A stretch of DNA of 64,000 nt from an uncultured Actinomycetota bacterium. Lineage in GTDB: Bacteria; Actinomycetota; Actinomycetes; Actinomycetales; Cellulomonadaceae. Shown here in pieces: positions 2,629 to 60,358 of the stretch. Location of the stretch: positions 1,664,118 to 1,728,117 of the forward strand of contig CAWDZL010000002.1 of assembly GCA_963807045.1 (NCBI GenBank). Direction: 5' to 3'. Every line of letters starts with the position of its first letter. Within the stretch, counting starts at the first letter, position 1. The notes below the pieces were generated by a model. It did no database searches. It saw only the letters and a program-made list of their open reading frames with translations, and was not told where the DNA came from. Both the position numbers and the translations under genes were made by a program.

Positions 2629-3987
2629 CTACGCCCCGACGTCGGACAGGTCGTCGTCGCGCTCGGCTGACGACCCTGCCGGCACGGCCCGCCCGGCGCG
2701 CACGACACCGGCTGCGGCCAACCCGAGCACCACCACGAGCAGGACGTTGCGGACGGCCAGCCCGATGCTCACCGCGTTCGCCCCGGCCAGCATCTGCTGG
2801 TAGGCCCACGGGAACACCCACTGCGTCAGGCCCGCGACCACGAGCAGCGCCCCGGCCGACGCCGGGAGCCAGCGCGGCAGCCCGCTGCCCTCGCCGGGTG
2901 CGTCGGCCCCGTCACTCGCGCCACGCCCCGCCGCGAGGGCCACCGCCACCGGCGCGGCCAGCCAGCTGAGGTACTGCGGCGAGAGCACCTTGTCGAACGC
3001 GATGAGCACGGTGAGGACGAGCAGCGCGCCGGGCGCCAGGACGGCGGTCGCATCGCCGCGTCGCGAGGCCCACCACAGCAGAGCGGCCGTCACGCCGGCC
3101 GCCAGAGCCAGCGCGACGTTCAGCGCCCGGGCTGCCCCGGCCGTGCCGGGCCCTGCGATCTCCCAGGTCACGAGCTGCTGGTTGAGGAACACGGTGACGT
3201 CGGGGTTCCCCGCCGCGTGCTGGAGCACCCACGGGGTCGCGGCGACCGCCTCGACCTGCAGGCCGCGGCCCTCCTGTGCCGAGAGGAACGAGAGGAGGTT
3301 CGGCAGGCCCCCGAGCGCCGTCGTCACCGCCGCGACCGCCGCACACACGGCCGCGGCCGGCACGACGACGTCCCGCACGGGCCGCCGGACCGCCGTCAGC
3401 AAGGGCAGCACGAGGGCGCCGGGCGCGACCTTGACCCAGGCGCCGGCCGTGAGGATCACCGCTGCGACGCGGGGCCGGCGGACCGCCGCGAGCAGCCCCA
3501 CCACCATGACCGGCGCTGCGACGGCGTCGAGCCGGCCCATCGCGACGGGTCCGAGCGCCGCGAGGTAGGCCATCCACCACAGCGCGCCGAGCGCACCGGG
3601 GCGGCCCCGGCGCAGCAGCCAGGCGACCGCGACGGCGTCGAGCACCGTGACGAGGGCGCACCAGGCAGCGGCGTAGGCGGCGGTGTCGACCGTCGTGACC
3701 AGGGCGGGAACCAGCATCGGCACGATCGCGCCGACCGGGTAGACCCACGGCCCCTCGAGTACGGGCCACTGGCCGTCGTGCGCACCGAGGTGCATCCACC
3801 AGCGGTACAGGTCGACGTCCCAGAAGGACTCCTGCGGTGCGATGACGACGCCCACCAGGGCGAGCCAGGCGTGGACGACGGCGAAGACGACCCACACGGT
3901 GACGCGCGTGCGCCGATCCGCCGGGCCGGGCGCGACGAGGGCGCGCGCGACCCCGAGGGGTCGAAGGGTGCTGAGCTGGGTGCGCAT
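2629..3987 (-). CDS. polytopic membrane glycosyltransferase, DUF2029/GT87-like (mannosyltransferase-like)
   Basis: A 452-aa protein with about 10 TM helices and a DxDxYRWW-type motif (DVDLYRWW) near the N-terminus, as in GT87/PimE-like enzymes. Confidence 0.65.
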   Translation of the reverse strand: MRTQLSTLRPLGVARALVAPGPADRRTRVTVWVVFAVVHAWLALVGVVIAPQESFWDVDLYRWWMHLGAHDGQWPVLEGPWVYPVGAIVPMLVPALVTTVDTAAYAAAWCALVTVLDAVAVAWLLRRGRPGALGALWWMAYLAALGPVAMGRLDAVAAPVMVVGLLAAVRRPRVAAVILTAGAWVKVAPGALVLPLLTAVRRPVRDVVVPAAAVCAAVAAVTTALGGLPNLLSFLSAQEGRGLQVEAVAATPWVLQHAAGNPDVTVFLNQQLVTWEIAGPGTAGAARALNVALALAAGVTAALLWWASRRGDATAVLAPGALLVLTVLIAFDKVLSPQYLSWLAAPVAVALAAGRGASDGADAPGEGSGLPRWLPASAGALLVVAGLTQWVFPWAYQQMLAGANAVSIGLAVRNVLLVVVLGLAAAGVVRAGRAVPAGSSAERDDDLSDVGA

Positions 3988-7702: not shown

Positions 7703-8098
7703 TCAGTGGCTGTGGTCGTGCCCGCTGTGGCTGTGGCTGTGGTCGTCGTCCGCGATCTGTCGGCGGACGTCGTCCATGTCGAGGGCACGCGCCTGGGCGA
7801 TCAGGTCGTCGAGGGCCGGCGCCGGGAGTGCGCCCGGCTGGCCGAACAGCAGGATCCCGTCGCGGAAGATCATCAGGGTCGGGATCGAGGTGATGCCGGC
7901 CTGGGCGGCGAGCGCCTGCTCGGCCTCCGTGTCGACCTTGCCGAAGACGACGTCCGGGTTGGCCGCCGCCGCCTTCTCGTAGACCGGCGCGAACTGACGG
8001 CACGGGCCGCACCACGACGCCCAGAAGTCGACGAGCACGATGTCGTTCTCGGTGACGGTCGGCTCGAAGCTGTCGATGGTCAGCTCGATGGTGGACAT
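7703..8098 (-). CDS. trxA: thioredoxin with His-rich C-terminal tail
   Basis: WCGPC active site. C-terminus DDDHSHSHSGHDHSH. Start was set at the internal MSTIEL Met of track ORF 7703..8149. Confidence 0.8.
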   Translation of the reverse strand: MSTIELTIDSFEPTVTENDIVLVDFWASWCGPCRQFAPVYEKAAAANPDVVFGKVDTEAEQALAAQAGITSIPTLMIFRDGILLFGQPGALPAPALDDLIAQARALDMDDVRRQIADDDHSHSHSGHDHSH

Positions 8099-8130
8099 GT
8101 GGCTCCTCGCTGGTCGGGACGGTCGGGAGA

Positions 8131-8146
8131 ATACCCCACGGGGTAT
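8131..8146. promoter_or_regulatory. 16-bp palindrome ATACCCCACGGGGTAT (CsoR/RicR-type operator-like) about 35 bp upstream of the thioredoxin start
   Basis: Perfect inverted repeat ATACCCC-AC-GGGGTAT seen in the sequence. It resembles the published CsoR operator core TACCC-N-GGGTA. Confidence 0.4.
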
Positions 8147-8224
8147 CAACCATGCGCTTGCCGGAGTATTCCACGATGCTCCTGCGCGCGGCCCGGTGCC
8201 AACGGGTCGCCTCCTCTGGTCCCG

Positions 8225-11370: not shown

Positions 11371-11871
11371 TCAGTCGTCGCCGCCGGAGGCCATGAGCTC
11401 GCGCAACGCCTCGACCACCAGGGCGTGGTCGTCCTCCTGGGCCAGTCCGGAGACGGTCACGGTGGCGACCATCCCGACGTCGCGCACGCGCACCGGGAAG
11501 CAGCCCCCGTGCGCGGCGAACCTGCGCTCGTCGAACCATGCCTCGTCCTCGATCCGGCGGCCCGCCAGCTGCGGGCGGAGGCCGATGAGGAAGGACGGCA
11601 CCCCGAACCGCTGCACGGCGCGGGTCTTGCGGCGCACCCAGTCGTCGTTGCTCTCGGCGGTGCCCTCCATGGCCAGGTGGAAGATCACCTGCATGCCCCG
11701 GGTGACGTCGATCGTCACGGGCAGGCCGCGGTCGACCGCGTAGCGGTGCAGGATCAGGCCCAGGCGGTGCGCGTCGCCGTTGGTGAACCGCTCGAGCTGC
11801 AGCTCCTCGAGCTCTGCCTCGATCTCGCGGACCTTCGCCTCGAGCTCCGGCGCCGGTGTCTGCTCGGTCAT
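11371..11871 (-). CDS. heme-degrading/UPF0303 (DUF336-like) domain protein
   Basis: 166 aa, similar to the UPF0303/GlcG-like family. Confidence 0.65.
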   Translation of the reverse strand: MTEQTPAPELEAKVREIEAELEELQLERFTNGDAHRLGLILHRYAVDRGLPVTIDVTRGMQVIFHLAMEGTAESNDDWVRRKTRAVQRFGVPSFLIGLRPQLAGRRIEDEAWFDERRFAAHGGCFPVRVRDVGMVATVTVSGLAQEDDHALVVEALRELMASGGDD

Positions 11872-12073
11872 CGACGTCCTCTCCGTCCGGGCGCTGCCGT
11901 CGCGTTCCTACCGGCAGCGCTGTCCTCGCCAGTATCGCGCTCGGACCCCGACGCTCCGCTGCAGCGAAACGTGCGTATGGCGACGGGTTCGCGAGAGGCC
12001 GCCCCCGGTCCGCACGAACATGCACCCGCTGTGCGCGCGACAGTTGTGCGCACAGCGGGTGGACGCGCGCAGG

Positions 12074-12198
12074 GCGCGGCGTGGCGTGGCGGGGCGTGGC
12101 GTGGCGGGGCGTGGCGTGGCGGGGCGGGGCGTGGCGTGGCGGGGCGTGGCGCGGCGTGGCAGGGCGGGGCGGGGCGCGGCGGGGCGCGGCGTGGCAGG
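12074..12198. repeat. 15-bp tandem repeat GGCGTGGCGTGGCGG: about 4.5 near-perfect copies followed by degenerate copies
   Basis: Read directly in the sequence. The repeat is intergenic, between the heme-degrading gene and the small membrane protein. It translates as GVAWR repeats in one frame. Confidence 0.85.
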
Positions 12199-12641: not shown

Positions 12642-13349
12642 CTACGCCTGCTCGCGCGTGATCGGCGGGATGAGCGCCGTCGTACGTCCCCGGCGGTAGA
12701 GCGTGGCGGGCCTGCCGGGCCCGTCGATGAGGGTGTGTCCGGTGTTCTCGAGCAGGCCCGGCGTCGAGGTCACCTTGCGGTGGAAGTTGCGCGGGTCGAG
12801 CGTGACGCCCCACACCGCCTCGTAGACGCGCCGCAGCTCGGAGACGGTGAACTCCGGCGGGCAGAACGCTGTCCCGAGCGAGGTGTACTCGAGCTTCGCG
12901 CGCGCCCGCTCGACGCCGTCGCGCAGGATGGCGGGGTGGTCGAAGGCGAGGTCGTCCGCCAACGCCTCCGCCACGGGGACCCAGTGCGCGGCGGCGGCGT
13001 CGCCACCGGCGTGTGGGTCCGGCAGCCGCGGGGCCATGACCAGGTACGCGACCGAGACGACGCGCATGCGGGGGTCGCGGTCCGGGCCGCCGTAGGTGCC
13101 GAGCTGCTCGAGGTGGGCGGGGATGCGGCGGACGCCGGTCTCCTCGGTCAGCTCGCGCGATGCCGCCCGCGCGAGGTCCTCGTCCGGCCGGACGAACCCG
13201 CCCGGTAGCGCGCGGCGTCCGGCGAACGGCTCCTCGCCGCGCGTCACGAGAAGAACCTGCAGGGCGTCGTCGCGCACGGTCAGCACGACGAGGTCCACGG
13301 TGACCGCGAACGGGGGGAAGGCGCCGGCGTCGTAGGCGGGTGTCGTCAC
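12642..13349 (-). CDS. nrtR: NrtR-type Nudix hydrolase/winged-helix transcriptional regulator
   Basis: Nudix box (GGFVRPDEDLARAASRELTEETG) plus the NrtR-type C-terminal domain (EFTVSELRRVYEAVWGVTLDPRNFHRKV). Confidence 0.75.
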   Translation of the reverse strand: MTTPAYDAGAFPPFAVTVDLVVLTVRDDALQVLLVTRGEEPFAGRRALPGGFVRPDEDLARAASRELTEETGVRRIPAHLEQLGTYGGPDRDPRMRVVSVAYLVMAPRLPDPHAGGDAAAAHWVPVAEALADDLAFDHPAILRDGVERARAKLEYTSLGTAFCPPEFTVSELRRVYEAVWGVTLDPRNFHRKVTSTPGLLENTGHTLIDGPGRPATLYRRGRTTALIPPITREQA

Positions 13350-35833: not shown

Positions 35834-36012
35834 GCCCGCCCCTCTCTCCCCCCGCCCCGCCCCTCTCCCCACCCCAGCCGCGAGCGCTGCCACGGCGCGC
35901 GAGAACTGCCGTCTGGACGGCAGCGTTCGCGTGCCGTAGCAGCGCTCGCGGCTGGGGTGGGGCGGGGGGGAGGGGCGGGGGGTTACGGGGTGGGTGCGGG
36001 TCGGGGGCGGCG
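35834..36012. repeat. nested palindromic element, copy 3 (about 180 bp; C-rich arm, CGCGAGCGCTGCC...GGCAGCGCTCGCG core, G-rich arm)
   Basis: Read in the sequence. The arms are imperfect inverted copies of each other. The right arm supplies the C-terminal codons of the F420 reductase. Confidence 0.8.
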
Positions 36013-36639
36013 GGCGGACGCGAGGTCGGTGCGCAGCTCCTCGGCGGTGCGGCGCGGACCGTAGCCGGGGGTGTCCGGCTGGATGCGCCAGCCCTCCGCG
36101 AGGCCGTCGAGCTCCACGGTGTCGAACCCGAGCGCGTCGATCAGCTCGGCGACGGCCCGGCGCGCGTCGGCGTCGTCGGCGGCCACCACGAGCGCGCGGC
36201 GCCCCGGCGTGCCCGACGGCGTCGCGTGCTCGGTGAGGTCGGCCGCGGTGATGTGGTTGAACGCCTTCACGACGACGGAGCCCGTCAGGCGCTGCTGGAG
36301 CAGCTCGGCGGAGGTGATGCTCTCTTCGTCGAGCTCCGGGATGTGCCCGTCGCGCTGCCAGTAGTAGTTGTTCGTGTCGATCACGATCTTGCCGGCGAGG
36401 GGCTCGACCGGGACGGTGCCGATGGCGTGCAGGGGGATGGTCACGACGGCGAGGTCCGCGGCCTCGGCTGCCTCCCGTGGTGTCCCGGCCCGCGCGTGGT
36501 CGCCCAGCTCGTCGACGAGGTCCACCAGGGTGTGTGGTCCGCGGGAGTTGCTCAGGACGACGTCGTAGCCGTTCGCGACGGCCAGGCGCGCGAGCTGGGA
36601 GCCGATGTGGCCGGAGCCGATGAGTCCGATTGTGGTCAT
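35983..36639 (-). CDS. NADPH-dependent F420 reductase (Npd-like)
   Basis: N-terminal Rossmann motif (MTTIGLIGSGHIGSQLARLAVANGYDV) and F420 reductase-like overall sequence. Confidence 0.7.
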   Translation of the reverse strand: MTTIGLIGSGHIGSQLARLAVANGYDVVLSNSRGPHTLVDLVDELGDHARAGTPREAAEAADLAVVTIPLHAIGTVPVEPLAGKIVIDTNNYYWQRDGHIPELDEESITSAELLQQRLTGSVVVKAFNHITAADLTEHATPSGTPGRRALVVAADDADARRAVAELIDALGFDTVELDGLAEGWRIQPDTPGYGPRRTAEELRTDLASARRPRPAPTP

Positions 36640-36705
36640 GAGGACGTCAACCGCTGCCGCCGCGACCCATTCCCGCCCGACGCCGTGACGCCCGACACGC
36701 GACTA

Positions 36706-56239: not shown

Positions 56240-58847
56240 TCAGAGCCGCGGGTCGACGGCCTCGGACTCCAGTGCCAGCACCGCGAACACGGCCTCGTGG
56301 ACGCGCCACAGTGGCTCGCCCGCGCAGAGCCGCGTGAGCGCCTCCAGCCCGAGCGCGTACTCCCGCAGCGCGAGGCTGCGCTTGCGCCCGAGGTGCCGCG
56401 CCCTCAGCCGTGTCAGGTGCTCCGGCTCGGTGTAGTCGGGGCCGTAGATGATCCGGAGGTACTCCCGCCCGCGCACCTTGATGCCCGGCTGCACGAGGCC
56501 GCGGCGTCCCCGGACCTCGTTGGCGAGCGGCTTGACCACCATGCCCTCGCCGCCCGCACCGGTGAGCTCGGTCCACCAGGCGACGCCGGCGGCCCAGGAC
56601 GCCTCGTCCGAAAGGTCGACGACCGCCCGCCGCGTCGCGGCGAGGATCCCGGACCGGTCGGCGTCGACCAGGGCGTCCGCGACGCCGAGGTGCCACAGGT
56701 GGTCGCGCTTCTCGAACGTCCCGGCGTCGGTGGCGAGCAGCTGGAACGGGGCCAGCCGCACGCCGTCGAGCCCGTCGGTGGGCCACACGTAGCGGCGGTA
56801 CGCGGCGCAGAACGCCTCCGCGTTCGCGCCCCGGGCCTGCGTCCGCGCCAGCAGCTCGTCGACCGGCAGCCCGGCCGCCGCCGCCGATTCCAGCGCGGCG
56901 GTCGCGGGCGGCAGCGCGGTGCGGGCTGCGGCGCCGACGGCGGCGTACTGGGAGCGCAGGAGGTCCTCCGCCTTCACCGACCACGGCATGCAGCTCGCAG
57001 TCCAGGAGCAGCCAGTCGGCGGGTGCGCCGTCGCGGCCGACCTGCCCCCACAGCCCGGCCTCCCGCGCGGACGTCCGGACGACGTCGAGCAGCCGCTCGG
57101 TCCGCACGTCGTCGAAGAACGGCCGCCCGGTGCGGGTGTGGACGACGCCGGACGTCCCGGCGGGCATGCCGAAGCGGGCCGCGGCGACGTCGGCGTCGCG
57201 GCACACGAGCGCCACGGCGCGCGACCCCATGTGCTTCTCCTCGCACACGACGCGGTCGACGCCGTCGTCCCGGAAGGCGCGGAAGGCCTGGTCGGGGTGC
57301 TCGAGGAGCTCGCCGTCGGCGGCCGTGGCGCACGGGCTCATGGTGGGCGGCAGGTAGATGAGCCAGCGCGGGTCGACCGCGAACCGGCTCATCACCTCCA
57401 GCGCACCGGCGGCGTTCTCCTCCGCGATCGTCACGCGCCCGTGGCGGCTGGTCTCGACGACCCGCTTGCCCAGGACGTCGGTGACGTCCAGCACGTCGGG
57501 GTCGCGTCGGGCCGCGCCGGCCGCGCCGGAAGCGCCCGCTGCGCCGTCGTCGGCAGCGTCGTCCCCGGTGGGGAACGGCCGCGCCGGCTCGTACCAGACG
57601 CGCTCGGCCGGGACCTGCACGACCTCCTTCTCGGGGTACCGCAGGGCGGTGAGGTGCCCGCCGAAGACGCACCCGGTGTCCAGGCACATCGTGCCGTTGA
57701 CCCAGGTGGGGACGGGCGTGGGCGTGTGGCCGTAGAGGACCGTCGCGCGACCGCGGTAGTCGTCGGCCCACGGCAGGCGCACGGGCAGGCCGAACTCGTC
57801 GGTCTCGCCGGTGGTGTCGCCGTACAGCGCGAACGACCGGACGCGCCCCGAGGCCCGGTTGTGGAACGCCTCCTTCAGGCCGGCGTGCGCGACGACGAGG
57901 TTGCCGTCGTCGAGGACGAGGTGCGCGACGAGGCCGTCGCAGAACGTGCGCACCTCGGTCCGGAACTCCGCCGGCTCGTCCGCGAGCTGGGCGAGCGTCG
58001 TCTCGAGGCCGTGCGACACCTGGACCTGGCGCCCGTCGAGCGCGCGCACCAGCTTGTTCTCGTGGTTGCCGGGCACGGCGAGCGCGTGACCCGCCGCGAC
58101 CATGCCCATGACCAGGCGCAGGACGCCGGCGCTGTCCGGCCCGCGGTCCACGAGGTCGCCGACGAACACCGCCCGCCGCCCGTCCGGGTGCGCGGCGTCC
58201 ATGGGCCGGCCCTCGGCGTCGCGCACGATCGCGTATCCGAGCGCGCCGAGCAGCGCCTCCAGCTCGGAGCGGCACCCGTGCACGTCGCCGACGACGTCGA
58301 ACGGCCCGTGGTCGGCGCGCCGGTCGCTGCGGAGCGGGGCGCGTTCGATCACCGCGGCGTCGACCTCCTCGGTGCCCGAGAGCACGTGGACGGTGCGGAA
58401 GCCCTCGCGGCCGAGGCTGCGCAGCGAGCGCCGCAGCTGCTCGCGCTGACGCCGGACGACGTGCGTGGCGAGCTGCCGGTCCGGTCGCCCGGAGTTGCGG
58501 TCCAGGCAGACCTGCTCCGGCACGTCGAGCACGATCGCGACCGGCAGGACGTCGTGGGCCCGGGCCAGCTCGACGAGACTCTGCCGCGCGGACTTCTGCA
58601 CGTTCGTGGCGTCGACGACGGTCAGCAGCCCGGCGTCGAGGCGCTTCCCGGCGATGTGGTGCAGGACGTCGAACGCCGCGGTCGTGGCCTCCTGCGAGTT
58701 CACGTCGTTGGAGACGAGGCCGCGGCAGAAGTCCGACGAGAGCGTTTCGAAGGGACCGAAGTGGCGGGCGGCGAACGTCGACTTGCCGGAGCCGGACGCC
58801 CCGACGAGGACGACGAGCGACAGGGCGGGGACGGTGAAGGTGCTCAT
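56240..58847 (-). CDS. pnkp: bacterial polynucleotide kinase-phosphatase Pnkp (kinase, metallophosphatase and ligase-like domains); apparent frameshift near 56985-56995
   Basis: P-loop LVGASGSGKST. Calcineurin-like phosphatase motifs (GDVHG, GDLVDRG, GNHE). The C-terminal adenylyltransferase-like domain continues in track ORF 56240..56989 (MPWSVKAEDLL...GMVVKP). GAAGGAGG RBS. The ATG overlaps the hen1 stop. Confidence 0.8.
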
Positions 58848-60358
58848 CGGGCGCCTCCTTCGTCGGTCGTCGTGGGCGTCGTGCGGGTCGTGCTGGCCGC
58901 GCCGGCCGCGCCGGCCGTGCGGCGGAAGACCGCCATCTGCGTCGGCGGCCCGACGTCGGGGTCCTCCGGCCCTACCGGGAGCAGCTCGACGTCGTACTCG
59001 TGGCGGTGCGCGGCCGCCTCGGCCCAGGTGCGGAACTCGGCGCGTGTCCACTCGAAGCGGTGGTCGTGGTGGCGCATCGTGCCGGCGTCGAGCGTGGGGT
59101 AGCGGACGTTGTGCTCGGCGTTCGGCGTGGTGACGATCAGGGTGGCCGGTGCCGCGCCGCCCAGGACGGCTCGCTCGAGCGCGGCGAGGCGCGGCGGGTC
59201 GACGTGCTCGATGACCTCCATGAGCACAGCTGCGTCGAACCCGGCGACGCGCGCGTCGGTGTACGTGACGGAGGACTGGGCAAGCTCGATGCGCTGCCGC
59301 AGGCGGTCGGGGAGCGTGTCGAGGTGCAGGCGGCGGGCCGCGGCGGACAGGGCCCGGGCCGAGACGTCGACGCCGAGGAGCCGCTCGTACCGCGCGTCCG
59401 CGAGGAGCTCGCTGAGCAGGGTTCCCTCGCCGCAGCCGAGGTCGACGACGCTGCGCGCCCCGGCGTCGTGCAGCTGGGCGGTGACCGCGTCGAGACGCTG
59501 GCGTGCCAGGGCGACGGGCGCCGCCGTCGGCGTCTCGGTGGGCGTCTCGGCGCTCGCGGCCGCGTCCTCGGCCTCGGGGTCGACGGCGTCGTCCAGGGTC
59601 TCCGGGCGGGCGTCGTCGACCTCGGCGAGGCGCGCGACGGCGGACGCGGCGAGGCTGTGCCGGTTGGCGAGGTAGCGGCGGGCGATCTCGTCACGTGCGG
59701 GGTGGCCGGCGAGCCAGCCCTCGCCGGCGCGGACCAGCTTCTCGACCTCGTCGGAGCCGACCCAGTAGTGCTTGGCGGCGTCGAGGGTGGGCAGCAGGAC
59801 GTACAGGTGGCTGAGTGCGTCGGCGACCGTCTGCGCGCCCGTGAGGCGCAGGTCGACGTAGCGGGAGTCGCCCCAGGCGGGGATGGTCGGGTCGAGCGCG
59901 ACCGGGCGCGCGTCGACCTCCCACCCGAGTGGCGCGAAGAGCCGGACGGCGGCGTCGGCCCCACCGCGGCAGGGCACCGCGGGGACGTGGACGGTCAGGT
60001 CCCAGCGGCGTGCGGGCAGGTCGGGGCGGGCGTCGCACCGGCCGGACGCGGCGGTCCGGAAGACCTTGCCGAGCGCGACGGCGAGCATCGAGGAGGCCGC
60101 GTAGGGGCGGTCGTTGACGTACTGCGCCAGGCTGAAGGCGACGTCGCGTGGGGCGCTCCGGCCCTTCTGGCGCACCAGACCGACGGGGTCGACCTCGAGG
60201 AGCAGCGCAACGGTGCAGCGCTCTGCGGTCGCCTCCGGGTAGAACACGTGCGCGACGCCGAACGACTGCTCGAACGCCTGCACGCGGCCGGGGTGCTTGT
60301 GCAGGAGGTAGCCGAGGTCGGTGGCGTCAGGGCCGGTGGCGGTCAGAGTCAGGAACAC
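58844..60358 (-). CDS. hen1: bacterial Hen1 3'-terminal RNA ribose 2'-O-methyltransferase
   Basis: C-terminal SAM-MTase motifs (VVDLGCGEG, FDAAVLMEVIEH) and a Hen1-type N-terminal domain. Translationally coupled to pnkp. Confidence 0.85.
   Translation of the reverse strand: MFLTLTATGPDATDLGYLLHKHPGRVQAFEQSFGVAHVFYPEATAERCTVALLLEVDPVGLVRQKGRSAPRDVAFSLAQYVNDRPYAASSMLAVALGKVFRTAASGRCDARPDLPARRWDLTVHVPAVPCRGGADAAVRLFAPLGWEVDARPVALDPTIPAWGDSRYVDLRLTGAQTVADALSHLYVLLPTLDAAKHYWVGSDEVEKLVRAGEGWLAGHPARDEIARRYLANRHSLAASAVARLAEVDDARPETLDDAVDPEAEDAAASAETPTETPTAAPVALARQRLDAVTAQLHDAGARSVVDLGCGEGTLLSELLADARYERLLGVDVSARALSAAARRLHLDTLPDRLRQRIELAQSSVTYTDARVAGFDAAVLMEVIEHVDPPRLAALERAVLGGAAPATLIVTTPNAEHNVRYPTLDAGTMRHHDHRFEWTRAEFRTWAEAAAHRHEYDVELLPVGPEDPDVGPPTQMAVFRRTAGAAGAASTTRTTPTTTDEGGAR

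Follow-up and report, generated by a model that had tools for sequence, protein, structure and literature searches.

A predicted CsoR-family operator abutting a sigma-H/R-type promoter upstream of a His-tailed thioredoxin gene in an uncultured member of the Cellulomonadaceae

The thioredoxin gene and the palindrome in front of it

The stretch of DNA analysed here, referred to as the window, comprises 64,000 nucleotides of an uncultured Actinomycetota bacterium of the Cellulomonadaceae (assembly GCA_963807045.1, contig CAWDZL010000002.1), and its G+C content of 73% is that of actinobacterial DNA. On its minus strand lies a gene (trx) for a thioredoxin (Trx) with a His-rich C-terminal tail, preceded by a 16-bp palindrome (Table 1) in which the initial annotation had recognized the operator core of the CsoR/RicR copper sensors, suggesting a copper-responsive thioredoxin. 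We propose instead that the palindrome is probably the operator of a CsoR-family repressor that senses persulfides, and that this operator lies directly against a promoter of the thiol-stress sigma factor type.

Table 1. Position of the features of the trx locus within the window
Feature	Position	Strand	Basis
Thioredoxin gene, 131 residues plus stop	7703..8098	minus	PF00085, TIGR01068, AlphaFold2 model, identical protein P0001
His/Asp/Ser-rich tail DDDHSHSHSGHDHSH, residues 117-131, 6 His	7706..7750	minus	translation
(CACAGC) x3.2 repeat encoding HSHSHS within the tail	7724..7742	minus	Tandem Repeats Finder: period 6, 100% match
Extra C-terminal helix, residues 108-121, MDDVRRQIADDDHS, past the canonical Trx fold	7736..7777	minus	model and alignment
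WCGPC active-site codons (W29-C33)	8000..8014	minus	translation; columns invariant in 41 homologues
Ribosome-binding site GAGGAG, 4 nt before the ATG	8103..8108	minus	read from the sequence; GAGGAG likewise in related loci L087 and L090
Predicted 16-bp CsoR-family type-2 operator ATACCCC-AC-GGGGTAT (= ATACC-N6-GGTAT = TACCC-N4-GGGTA)	8131..8146		uniqueness, matrix score, conservation, fit to the ScCsoR site
Sigma-H/sigma-R-type extracytoplasmic function (ECF) promoter GGAAT-N17-GTT; -35 GGAAT 8172-8168, -10 GTT 8150-8148	8148..8172	minus	motif match and conservation

The product of the gene, which starts with an ATG at 8098 and has its stop codon at 7703-7705, is a genuine thioredoxin: it matches the Pfam family PF00085 (Thioredoxin, 2e-25), scores above the curated cut-off of NCBIfam TIGR01068 (98.4 against 96.8 bits), contains the WCGPC active site and is modelled by AlphaFold2 with a Trx fold (predicted local distance difference test, pLDDT, 91), to which the extra helix and a tail of low confidence are appended. 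Thioredoxins in the PDB align to residues 1-103 only, and residues L106, D107, M108, D109, V111 and R112 beyond this point are invariant or nearly so. A public collection holds a protein (P0001) that is 100% identical to the Trx product. A longer open reading frame (ORF) starting with TTG and reaching to 8149 was rejected as the trx gene, since the homologues all start at MST.

The tail combines His with Asp/Glu residues (6 His in 15 residues) and is probably disordered, as its low model confidence (pLDDT 52-56) indicates. Of the 120 closest homologues (66-100% identity), 77 have a tail, 11-35 residues long, with 4-12 His in H-D/E-H and GHDH units; that of Actinotalea fermentans is among them, as are numerous sequences from metagenomes. 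This variation in length is consistent with replication slippage, and the conservation of composition in the homologues marks the tail as a selected feature of the clade, of variable length. The His-rich C-terminus noted in the initial annotation is thus real and conserved across a clade.

The plus strand at the palindrome reads ATACCCCACGGGGTAT, in which the 7-nt arms ATACCCC and GGGGTAT pair perfectly; the initial description as a perfect inverted repeat holds for these arms, but not for the 2-nt centre AC, which is not self-complementary. No other match occurs in the window even when up to 2 mismatches are tolerated (0.03 expected from shuffles), and the more general pattern TACCC-N1-8-GGGTA occurs once against 0.06 expected. 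The near end of the palindrome lies 33 nt from the trx ATG (its centre about 40 nt), in good agreement with the distance of about 35 bp given initially. Type-2 operators of the CsoR/RcnR superfamily consist of two short G/C tracts, 2-4 bases apart, with an AT-rich inverted repeat TAC...GTA on their outside (PMC3902906), and repressors of this operator class are bound as two tetramers per site. The arrangement ATA-CCCC-AC-GGGG-TAT has the G/C tracts as well as the TAC...GTA flanks, and is located in a promoter region. The TACCC/GGGTA core, including its spacing, equals that of the ricR promoter site of Mycobacterium tuberculosis, TACCCCGCTGGGTA (PMC3944814), so that the similarity to a CsoR/RicR operator was rightly noticed. 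Together, these properties support the prediction of a CsoR/RcnR-superfamily type-2 operator that would be positioned to control trx.

Directly before the palindrome, the sequence of the minus strand is GGAATACTCCGGCAAGCGCATGGTT-G-ATACCCC, with the single base G8147 between operator and promoter, placing the first operator base 2 nt past the -10 GTT. The promoter is one of just two matches to GGAAT-N17-GTT in the window, where 0.3 would be expected, and both of its blocks are conserved in orthologues. Among 84 loci surveyed, 42 have GGAA[TC]-N17-18-GTT on the sense strand no more than 200 nt upstream of trx, against an expectation of 0.011 per 200 nt. In type it matches the consensus of Corynebacterium glutamicum sigma-H (-35/-10 spacing N18-19) and the promoter of trxB1 (cg3299; N18) of that species (PMC10012870), the N17 spacing, shared with the Actinotalea and Georgenia orthologues, being one base below this consensus. 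Where both elements are present, the operator begins 1-8 nt past the GTT in ten loci (window included) and lies within the -35/-10 spacer in three (GGAATACCC...GGGGTAT-N5-GTT); both arrangements would let a bound repressor occlude the polymerase. Given the general architecture of ECF promoters, trx transcription is expected to start at about 8140-8143, within the left arm, and since the operator abuts the promoter it should cover this start.

A sigma-70 promoter with TATTCT as a -10 box overlapping the right arm was also considered. A consensus scan found none, and the idea has been superseded by the conserved GGAAT/GTT promoter; the pattern TANNNT occurs toward trx at 8 of 25 sites, versus 3 of 25 in the control orientation. 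Besides the trx promoter, the window has a single further GGAAT-N17/18-GTT match (GGAATGGGTCGCGGCGGCAGCGGTT, 36649-36673, minus strand). It ends 10 nt before a minus-strand ORF of 218 residues resembling NAD(P)-binding oxidoreductases (35983-36639), and may represent another promoter of the sigma-H/R type, possibly giving rise to a near-leaderless transcript.

Conservation of the operator in related loci

Conservation was assessed in 80 loci from species-representative genomes, containing Trx relatives of 53-74% identity and totalling 855 kb. The pattern TACCC-N4-GGGTA occurs 42 times in these sequences, compared with three occurrences for N3, none for N5, and at most one for any other spacing from 0 to 10. 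Fifteen of the 42 N4 sites are found within 170 nt upstream of trx, a zone that makes up 1.4% of the sequence. On either side of the pattern, an A and a T that had not been specified in the search are conserved at 91%, extending the motif to ATACCC-N4-GGGTAT. On a weight matrix derived from the 42 related sites the palindrome of the window scores 27.9 bits, whereas the runner-up position in the 64 kb scores 4.9.

In closer relatives (Trx identity 73-77%) the gene order is the same as in the window, i.e. flavodoxin-like, LLM oxidoreductase, trx, gluconokinase-like and VapB-like. Their LLM-trx spacers have retained the palindrome (ATACCCCGTAGGGTAT, ATACCCCCGGGGGTAT, ATACCCCAGGGGGTAC) while the flanks have diverged; syntenic orthologues with a conserved operator are L081, L087, L090, L010 and L035. 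Comparison of six orthologous upstream regions leaves only GGAAT, GTT, ATACCCC...GGGTA and the ATG as conserved blocks. Judged by this phylogenetic footprint, the predicted operator is a real cis-element.

The linked regulators and the signal they would sense

A gene of the CsoR family (PF02583) is present near trx in 15 of the 80 loci, in about ten of these directly downstream and on the same strand. When one of these regulators (P0221) was used as an independent starting point, eight contigs from metagenomes or metagenome-assembled genomes (MAGs) were retrieved, most of which have a trx-DUF302-regulator operon; in the longer ones, this operon adjoins genes for Pyr_redox_2, DsrC-like and DsrE-like proteins, and the motif precedes both the regulator and the Pyr_redox_2 gene. 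Elsewhere in the related loci the motif precedes genes for fusions of metallo-beta-lactamase and rhodanese domains (persulfide dioxygenase type), single rhodaneses, a YgaP-like rhodanese, TauE, and Pyr_redox_2 flavoproteins resembling sulfide:quinone oxidoreductase (SQR). At least one such sulfur gene or the regulator is found in 23 of the 80 loci.

The regulators were aligned with CsoR reference sequences. Where M. tuberculosis CsoR has Cys36, His61 and Cys65, each of the 16 regulators that accompany this Trx family shows Cys-Gly/Ala/Ser-Cys, and therefore lacks the His ligand for Cu(I); the same C-G/A/S-C (x-C-x-C) pattern is found in all 120 regulator homologues among the matches listed. 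In addition, the linked regulator fails the NCBIfam models for RicR (44 bits, cut-off 175), FrmR and RcnR. The x-C-x-C group of actinomycetes corresponds to cluster 3 of a published sequence similarity network (SSN), whose members are candidate persulfide sensors and include the 'CsoR' of Streptomyces coelicolor and M. tuberculosis Rv1766 (Fakhoury et al., PMC8643695). The S. coelicolor protein (ScCsoR) binds a 16-bp ATACC-N6-GGTAT sequence at -48 and -9 of the pdo promoter and represses pdo, tauE, rhod and its own gene, and polysulfide releases it from the DNA via Cys37 and Cys66 (Lu et al. 2020, PMC7533328). The site in the window fits this formula exactly.

Several observations were made on genes accompanying these trx homologues. 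A DUF302 gene often directly follows trx (8443-8898 of L087, from A. fermentans; also L011, L020, L022 and L096) and sits between trx and the regulator where the latter is present; in A. fermentans only this gene follows trx, and in the window its slot is empty. In the trx-DUF302-regulator operon of the uncultured actinomycete loci L096-L103 (e.g. L096 5106-6264), the Trx homologue has WAPWSRASR replacing WCGPC, and may be a redox-dead thioredoxin-like protein that has been retained in a sulfur-sensor operon. A C-terminal rhodanese is fused to Trx in family members L003, L014 and L032 and in protein P0117 (e.g. ...VFVICASGARS...; P0117 has a precomputed PF00581 match), and such fusions, in three Trx homologues, are a further linkage to sulfur-transfer chemistry.

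From the evidence of the site and its conservation, of the promoter motif, of genomic linkage and of the residue pattern of the regulators, we consider it likely, with a probability of about two in three, that the palindrome is the operator of a CstR-like, persulfide-sensing x-C-x-C repressor that is encoded outside the window and gates a trx gene transcribed by sigma-H/R. The assignment to a sulfur sensor is derived from the genomic linkage and the regulator residues, and not from the spacing of the operator. The use of N4 versus N5 spacing as a discriminator between copper and sulfur was dropped, as the ricR promoter site has N4 and the Streptococcus mitis cst operator N5 (PMC8643695).

A number of points weigh against this assignment. 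Operator sequence and spacing cannot separate sulfur from copper sensors, the ricR promoter site being of the same TACCC-N4-GGGTA type, and inducer specificity has been shown experimentally for a single cluster-3 protein. In agreement with the initial annotation, no CsoR-family gene was found in the window by tblastn with reference sequences of CsoR, RcnR and FrmR and with the regulators of related loci. Nor does the window contain a gene for persulfide dioxygenase (PDO), rhodanese, TauE, SQR or DUF302, so that co-localization with sulfide or persulfide detoxification genes is seen in related loci and not in the window itself. The operator is present in only about 23-27 of the 80 family members. 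Finally, His-tailed members beyond the close clade (L001, L004, L013, L044) are without the operator, and similar tails without it occur in a few distant members (a Kofleriaceae MAG, Ca. Phosphoribacter and others); tail and operator are hence separable, and the notion that they form a linked pair was rejected.

The suggestion of the initial annotation, that the site is bound by a copper-sensing CsoR/RicR protein (C-H-C) and that the His-tailed Trx belongs to a copper-stress regulon, agrees with the identical core and N4 spacing of the ricR promoter site, and His-rich tails of actinobacterial proteins such as GroEL1 are reported to bind Cu(II) (PMC10170517; bioRxiv 10.1101/766162). Moreover, many actinobacteria have both types of sensor, and the DNA sequence alone leaves room for cross-recognition. 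Nevertheless, copper is an unlikely signal, since none of the 16 linked regulators has the Cu(I)-ligand His, the linked regulator remains far below the RicR cut-off, and all other motif-preceded genes are sulfur genes. Furthermore, no CopZ- or CopA-like gene was detected by tblastn in the window or in 103 related loci. Published copper-sensor operators differ among themselves: the window site matches the ricR promoter, but not the one base longer TAC-N9-GTA (N5) sites of the copper CsoR of Streptomyces lividans (PMC3902906), a spacing that is absent from the 855 kb of related loci.

It also seems improbable that the x-C-x-C repressor senses another thiol-reactive stress (disulfide, electrophile, aldehyde or oxidant), with Trx acting as a general thiol-stress enzyme. 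Such a role would suit the promoter, which is of the type used by the general thiol-oxidative-stress regulon of sigma-H/sigma-R, and about two-thirds of the family members have a sigma-H-like promoter, or lack both the operator and nearby sulfur genes. CstR proteins react with tetrathionate as well in vitro (PMC8643695), and the experimental record for cluster 3 is that of the one protein mentioned above. The informative neighbours, however, are specifically sulfide and persulfide genes (PDO-rhodanese, TauE, SQR-like, DsrE, DsrC), and ScCsoR responds to polysulfide in vitro while its targets are induced on build-up of sulfane sulfur in vivo (PMC7533328).

An RNA element, i.e. a hairpin in the 5' untranslated region or a terminator/attenuator of the upstream LLM oxidoreductase gene, is very improbable, although the inverted repeat does separate two genes of the same orientation and would be transcribed if the start lay upstream of it. 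A 2-nt loop cannot close the 7-bp stem, no U-run follows the repeat, and neither a terminator scan nor a search of Rfam families gave a match. With transcription predicted to start within the left arm, the trx mRNA would not contain the full hairpin. Across orthologues the arms are invariant rather than covarying, and in one of them the inner pairing is broken (CCGTAG); it is thus the sequence of the arms, beyond their mere pairing, that has been kept, and this speaks for a protein site rather than an RNA hairpin. A chance palindrome without function, as might be supposed from a single copy in the window with no regulator gene nearby, is hardly credible given the shuffling expectation, the score on an independently derived matrix, and its conservation at that position in at least five further lineages, whose flanks have diverged.

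Proposed control and relation to known systems

In the proposed persulfide control of trx, the repressor would be a tetrameric CsoR-family protein (PF02583) of the dithiol x-C-x-C clade (SSN cluster 3, with ScCsoR, SCO0620, and Rv1766), encoded elsewhere in the genome, beyond the 64-kb window. Proteins of this clade would work like CstR, sensing persulfide or sulfane sulfur and not copper. The trx gene would be transcribed from the sigma-H/sigma-R-type promoter, and the bound repressor, covering the transcription start, would block initiation. Full expression would then require both an active thiol-stress sigma factor and release of the repressor, through persulfidation of its two cysteines or their cross-linking by polysulfide. 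Once induced, Trx would most likely reduce persulfides and polysulfides on proteins and small thiols by means of its WCGPC site; S. coelicolor thioredoxins reduce sulfane sulfur to H2S (PMC9952706). In addition, Trx may re-reduce and so reset its own repressor in a feedback loop, as the recurrent trx-DUF302-regulator operon suggests.

The tail appears to be a clade-specific addition that probably binds a divalent metal, our best guess for its role being the buffering or re-delivery of Zn or another thiophilic metal as sulfide stress disturbs metal availability. A more far-reaching scheme is tentative and, in our opinion, rather doubtful: Trx could be a bifunctional stress protein, produced when two thiol sensors (the ECF sigma-H/R promoter and the persulfide-sensing CsoR-family repressor on its start site) are both engaged at once, whose conserved HDH-repeat tail captures or re-delivers Zn, Cu or Ni stripped or withheld from proteins by sulfide/persulfide stress, thereby coupling thiol repair (depersulfidation) to metal re-loading.

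Among the closest known counterparts is ScCsoR of S. coelicolor (SCO0620, PMC7533328), with which the proposed system shares the 16-bp ATACC-N6-GGTAT operator overlapping a promoter, the actinobacterial x-C-x-C CsoR-family repressor and, in the related loci, the partners PDO-rhodanese, rhodanese and TauE. The published circuit, in contrast, comprises four genes without a thioredoxin, whereas the target in the window is a stand-alone trx far from regulator and sulfur genes, with an ECF (sigma-H/R-type) promoter and a product carrying a His-rich tail. The CstR repressors and cst operons of Staphylococcus aureus, Enterococcus and Streptococcus (PMC8643695, PMC5480029) are similar in that dithiol CsoR-family repressors without the Cu-ligand His control persulfide detoxification, and in operators with G/C tracts flanked by ATAC/GTAT. 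The E. faecalis CstR regulon includes CoAPR, a persulfide reductase whose function is analogous to that of a reducing thioredoxin. CstR proteins belong, however, to SSN clusters 4 and 10 rather than 3, thioredoxin is not among the reported CstR targets, and the S. mitis cst core ATACCCTTATGGGGTAT measures 17 bp (N5) compared to 16 bp in the window. The RicR regulon of M. tuberculosis (PMC3944814) involves the same protein superfamily and the same operator core and spacing, but RicR is a C-H-C copper sensor of mymT, mmcO, lpqS, socAB and Rv2963, and the loci examined link this Trx family neither to such gene types nor to a C-H-C regulator.

With sigma-H/sigma-R-dependent thioredoxin genes such as C. 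glutamicum trxB1 (PMC10012870), the locus shares a GGAAT...GTT promoter a few tens of nucleotides before the trx start, which the Trx family carries in half of the loci examined. No overlapping repressor operator has been described for the C. glutamicum sigma-H set (PMC10012870), whereas in the present loci the promoter adjoins or encloses a CsoR-type operator. For the tail, the nearest parallel is mycobacterial GroEL1, which is likewise a housekeeping-type protein of actinobacteria and ends in a short, disordered stretch rich in His. The GroEL1 tail is reported to bind metal, including Cu(II) (PMC10170517; bioRxiv 10.1101/766162), while the tail discussed here, a putative metal binder, sits on another carrier protein. 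A literature search found no paper on a thioredoxin with such a His-rich tail; the sole other fusion of Trx with a metal-binding sequence that it returned, a Trx-metallothionein chimera (PMC13578184), is Cys-rich and unrelated. Two features are not described in the papers searched: the repeated occurrence of CsoR-type operators that overlap ECF promoters, and the clade of His-tailed thioredoxins.

Some further features of the window were recorded. A 15-bp tandem repeat, GGCGGGGCGTGGCGT (x8.2, 87% match; alternatively GGCGT x24.6), G-rich on the plus strand, occupies positions 12073-12195 in the gap between an HbpS-like gene (11371-11871) and the next ORF (12642-13349). A minus-strand ORF of 504 residues at 58844-60358, beginning VFLTLTATGPDATDLGYLLHKHPGRV, presumably resembles bacterial Hen1 RNA 3'-end methyltransferases. 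The tRNA with an undetermined 4-base anticodon that ARAGORN predicts at 3512-3585 (minus strand) lies within a coding ORF of 452 residues (2629-3987) and is probably a false positive.

The persulfide reading of the locus would correct a tempting mis-annotation, as databases name the regulators 'metal-sensitive transcriptional regulator' and the operator resembles a copper-sensor site. It would add to the actinobacterial reactive-sulfur regulon, known with four genes, a thioredoxin subfamily that is often encoded in a trx-DUF302-regulator operon and is a concrete candidate enzyme for persulfide removal and sensor reset. The recurrent placement of a CsoR-type operator against or within an ECF sigma-H/R promoter predicts AND-gate control by two thiol sensors. 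Finally, the widespread thioredoxin clade with HDH-repeat tails could link sulfide stress to metal availability.

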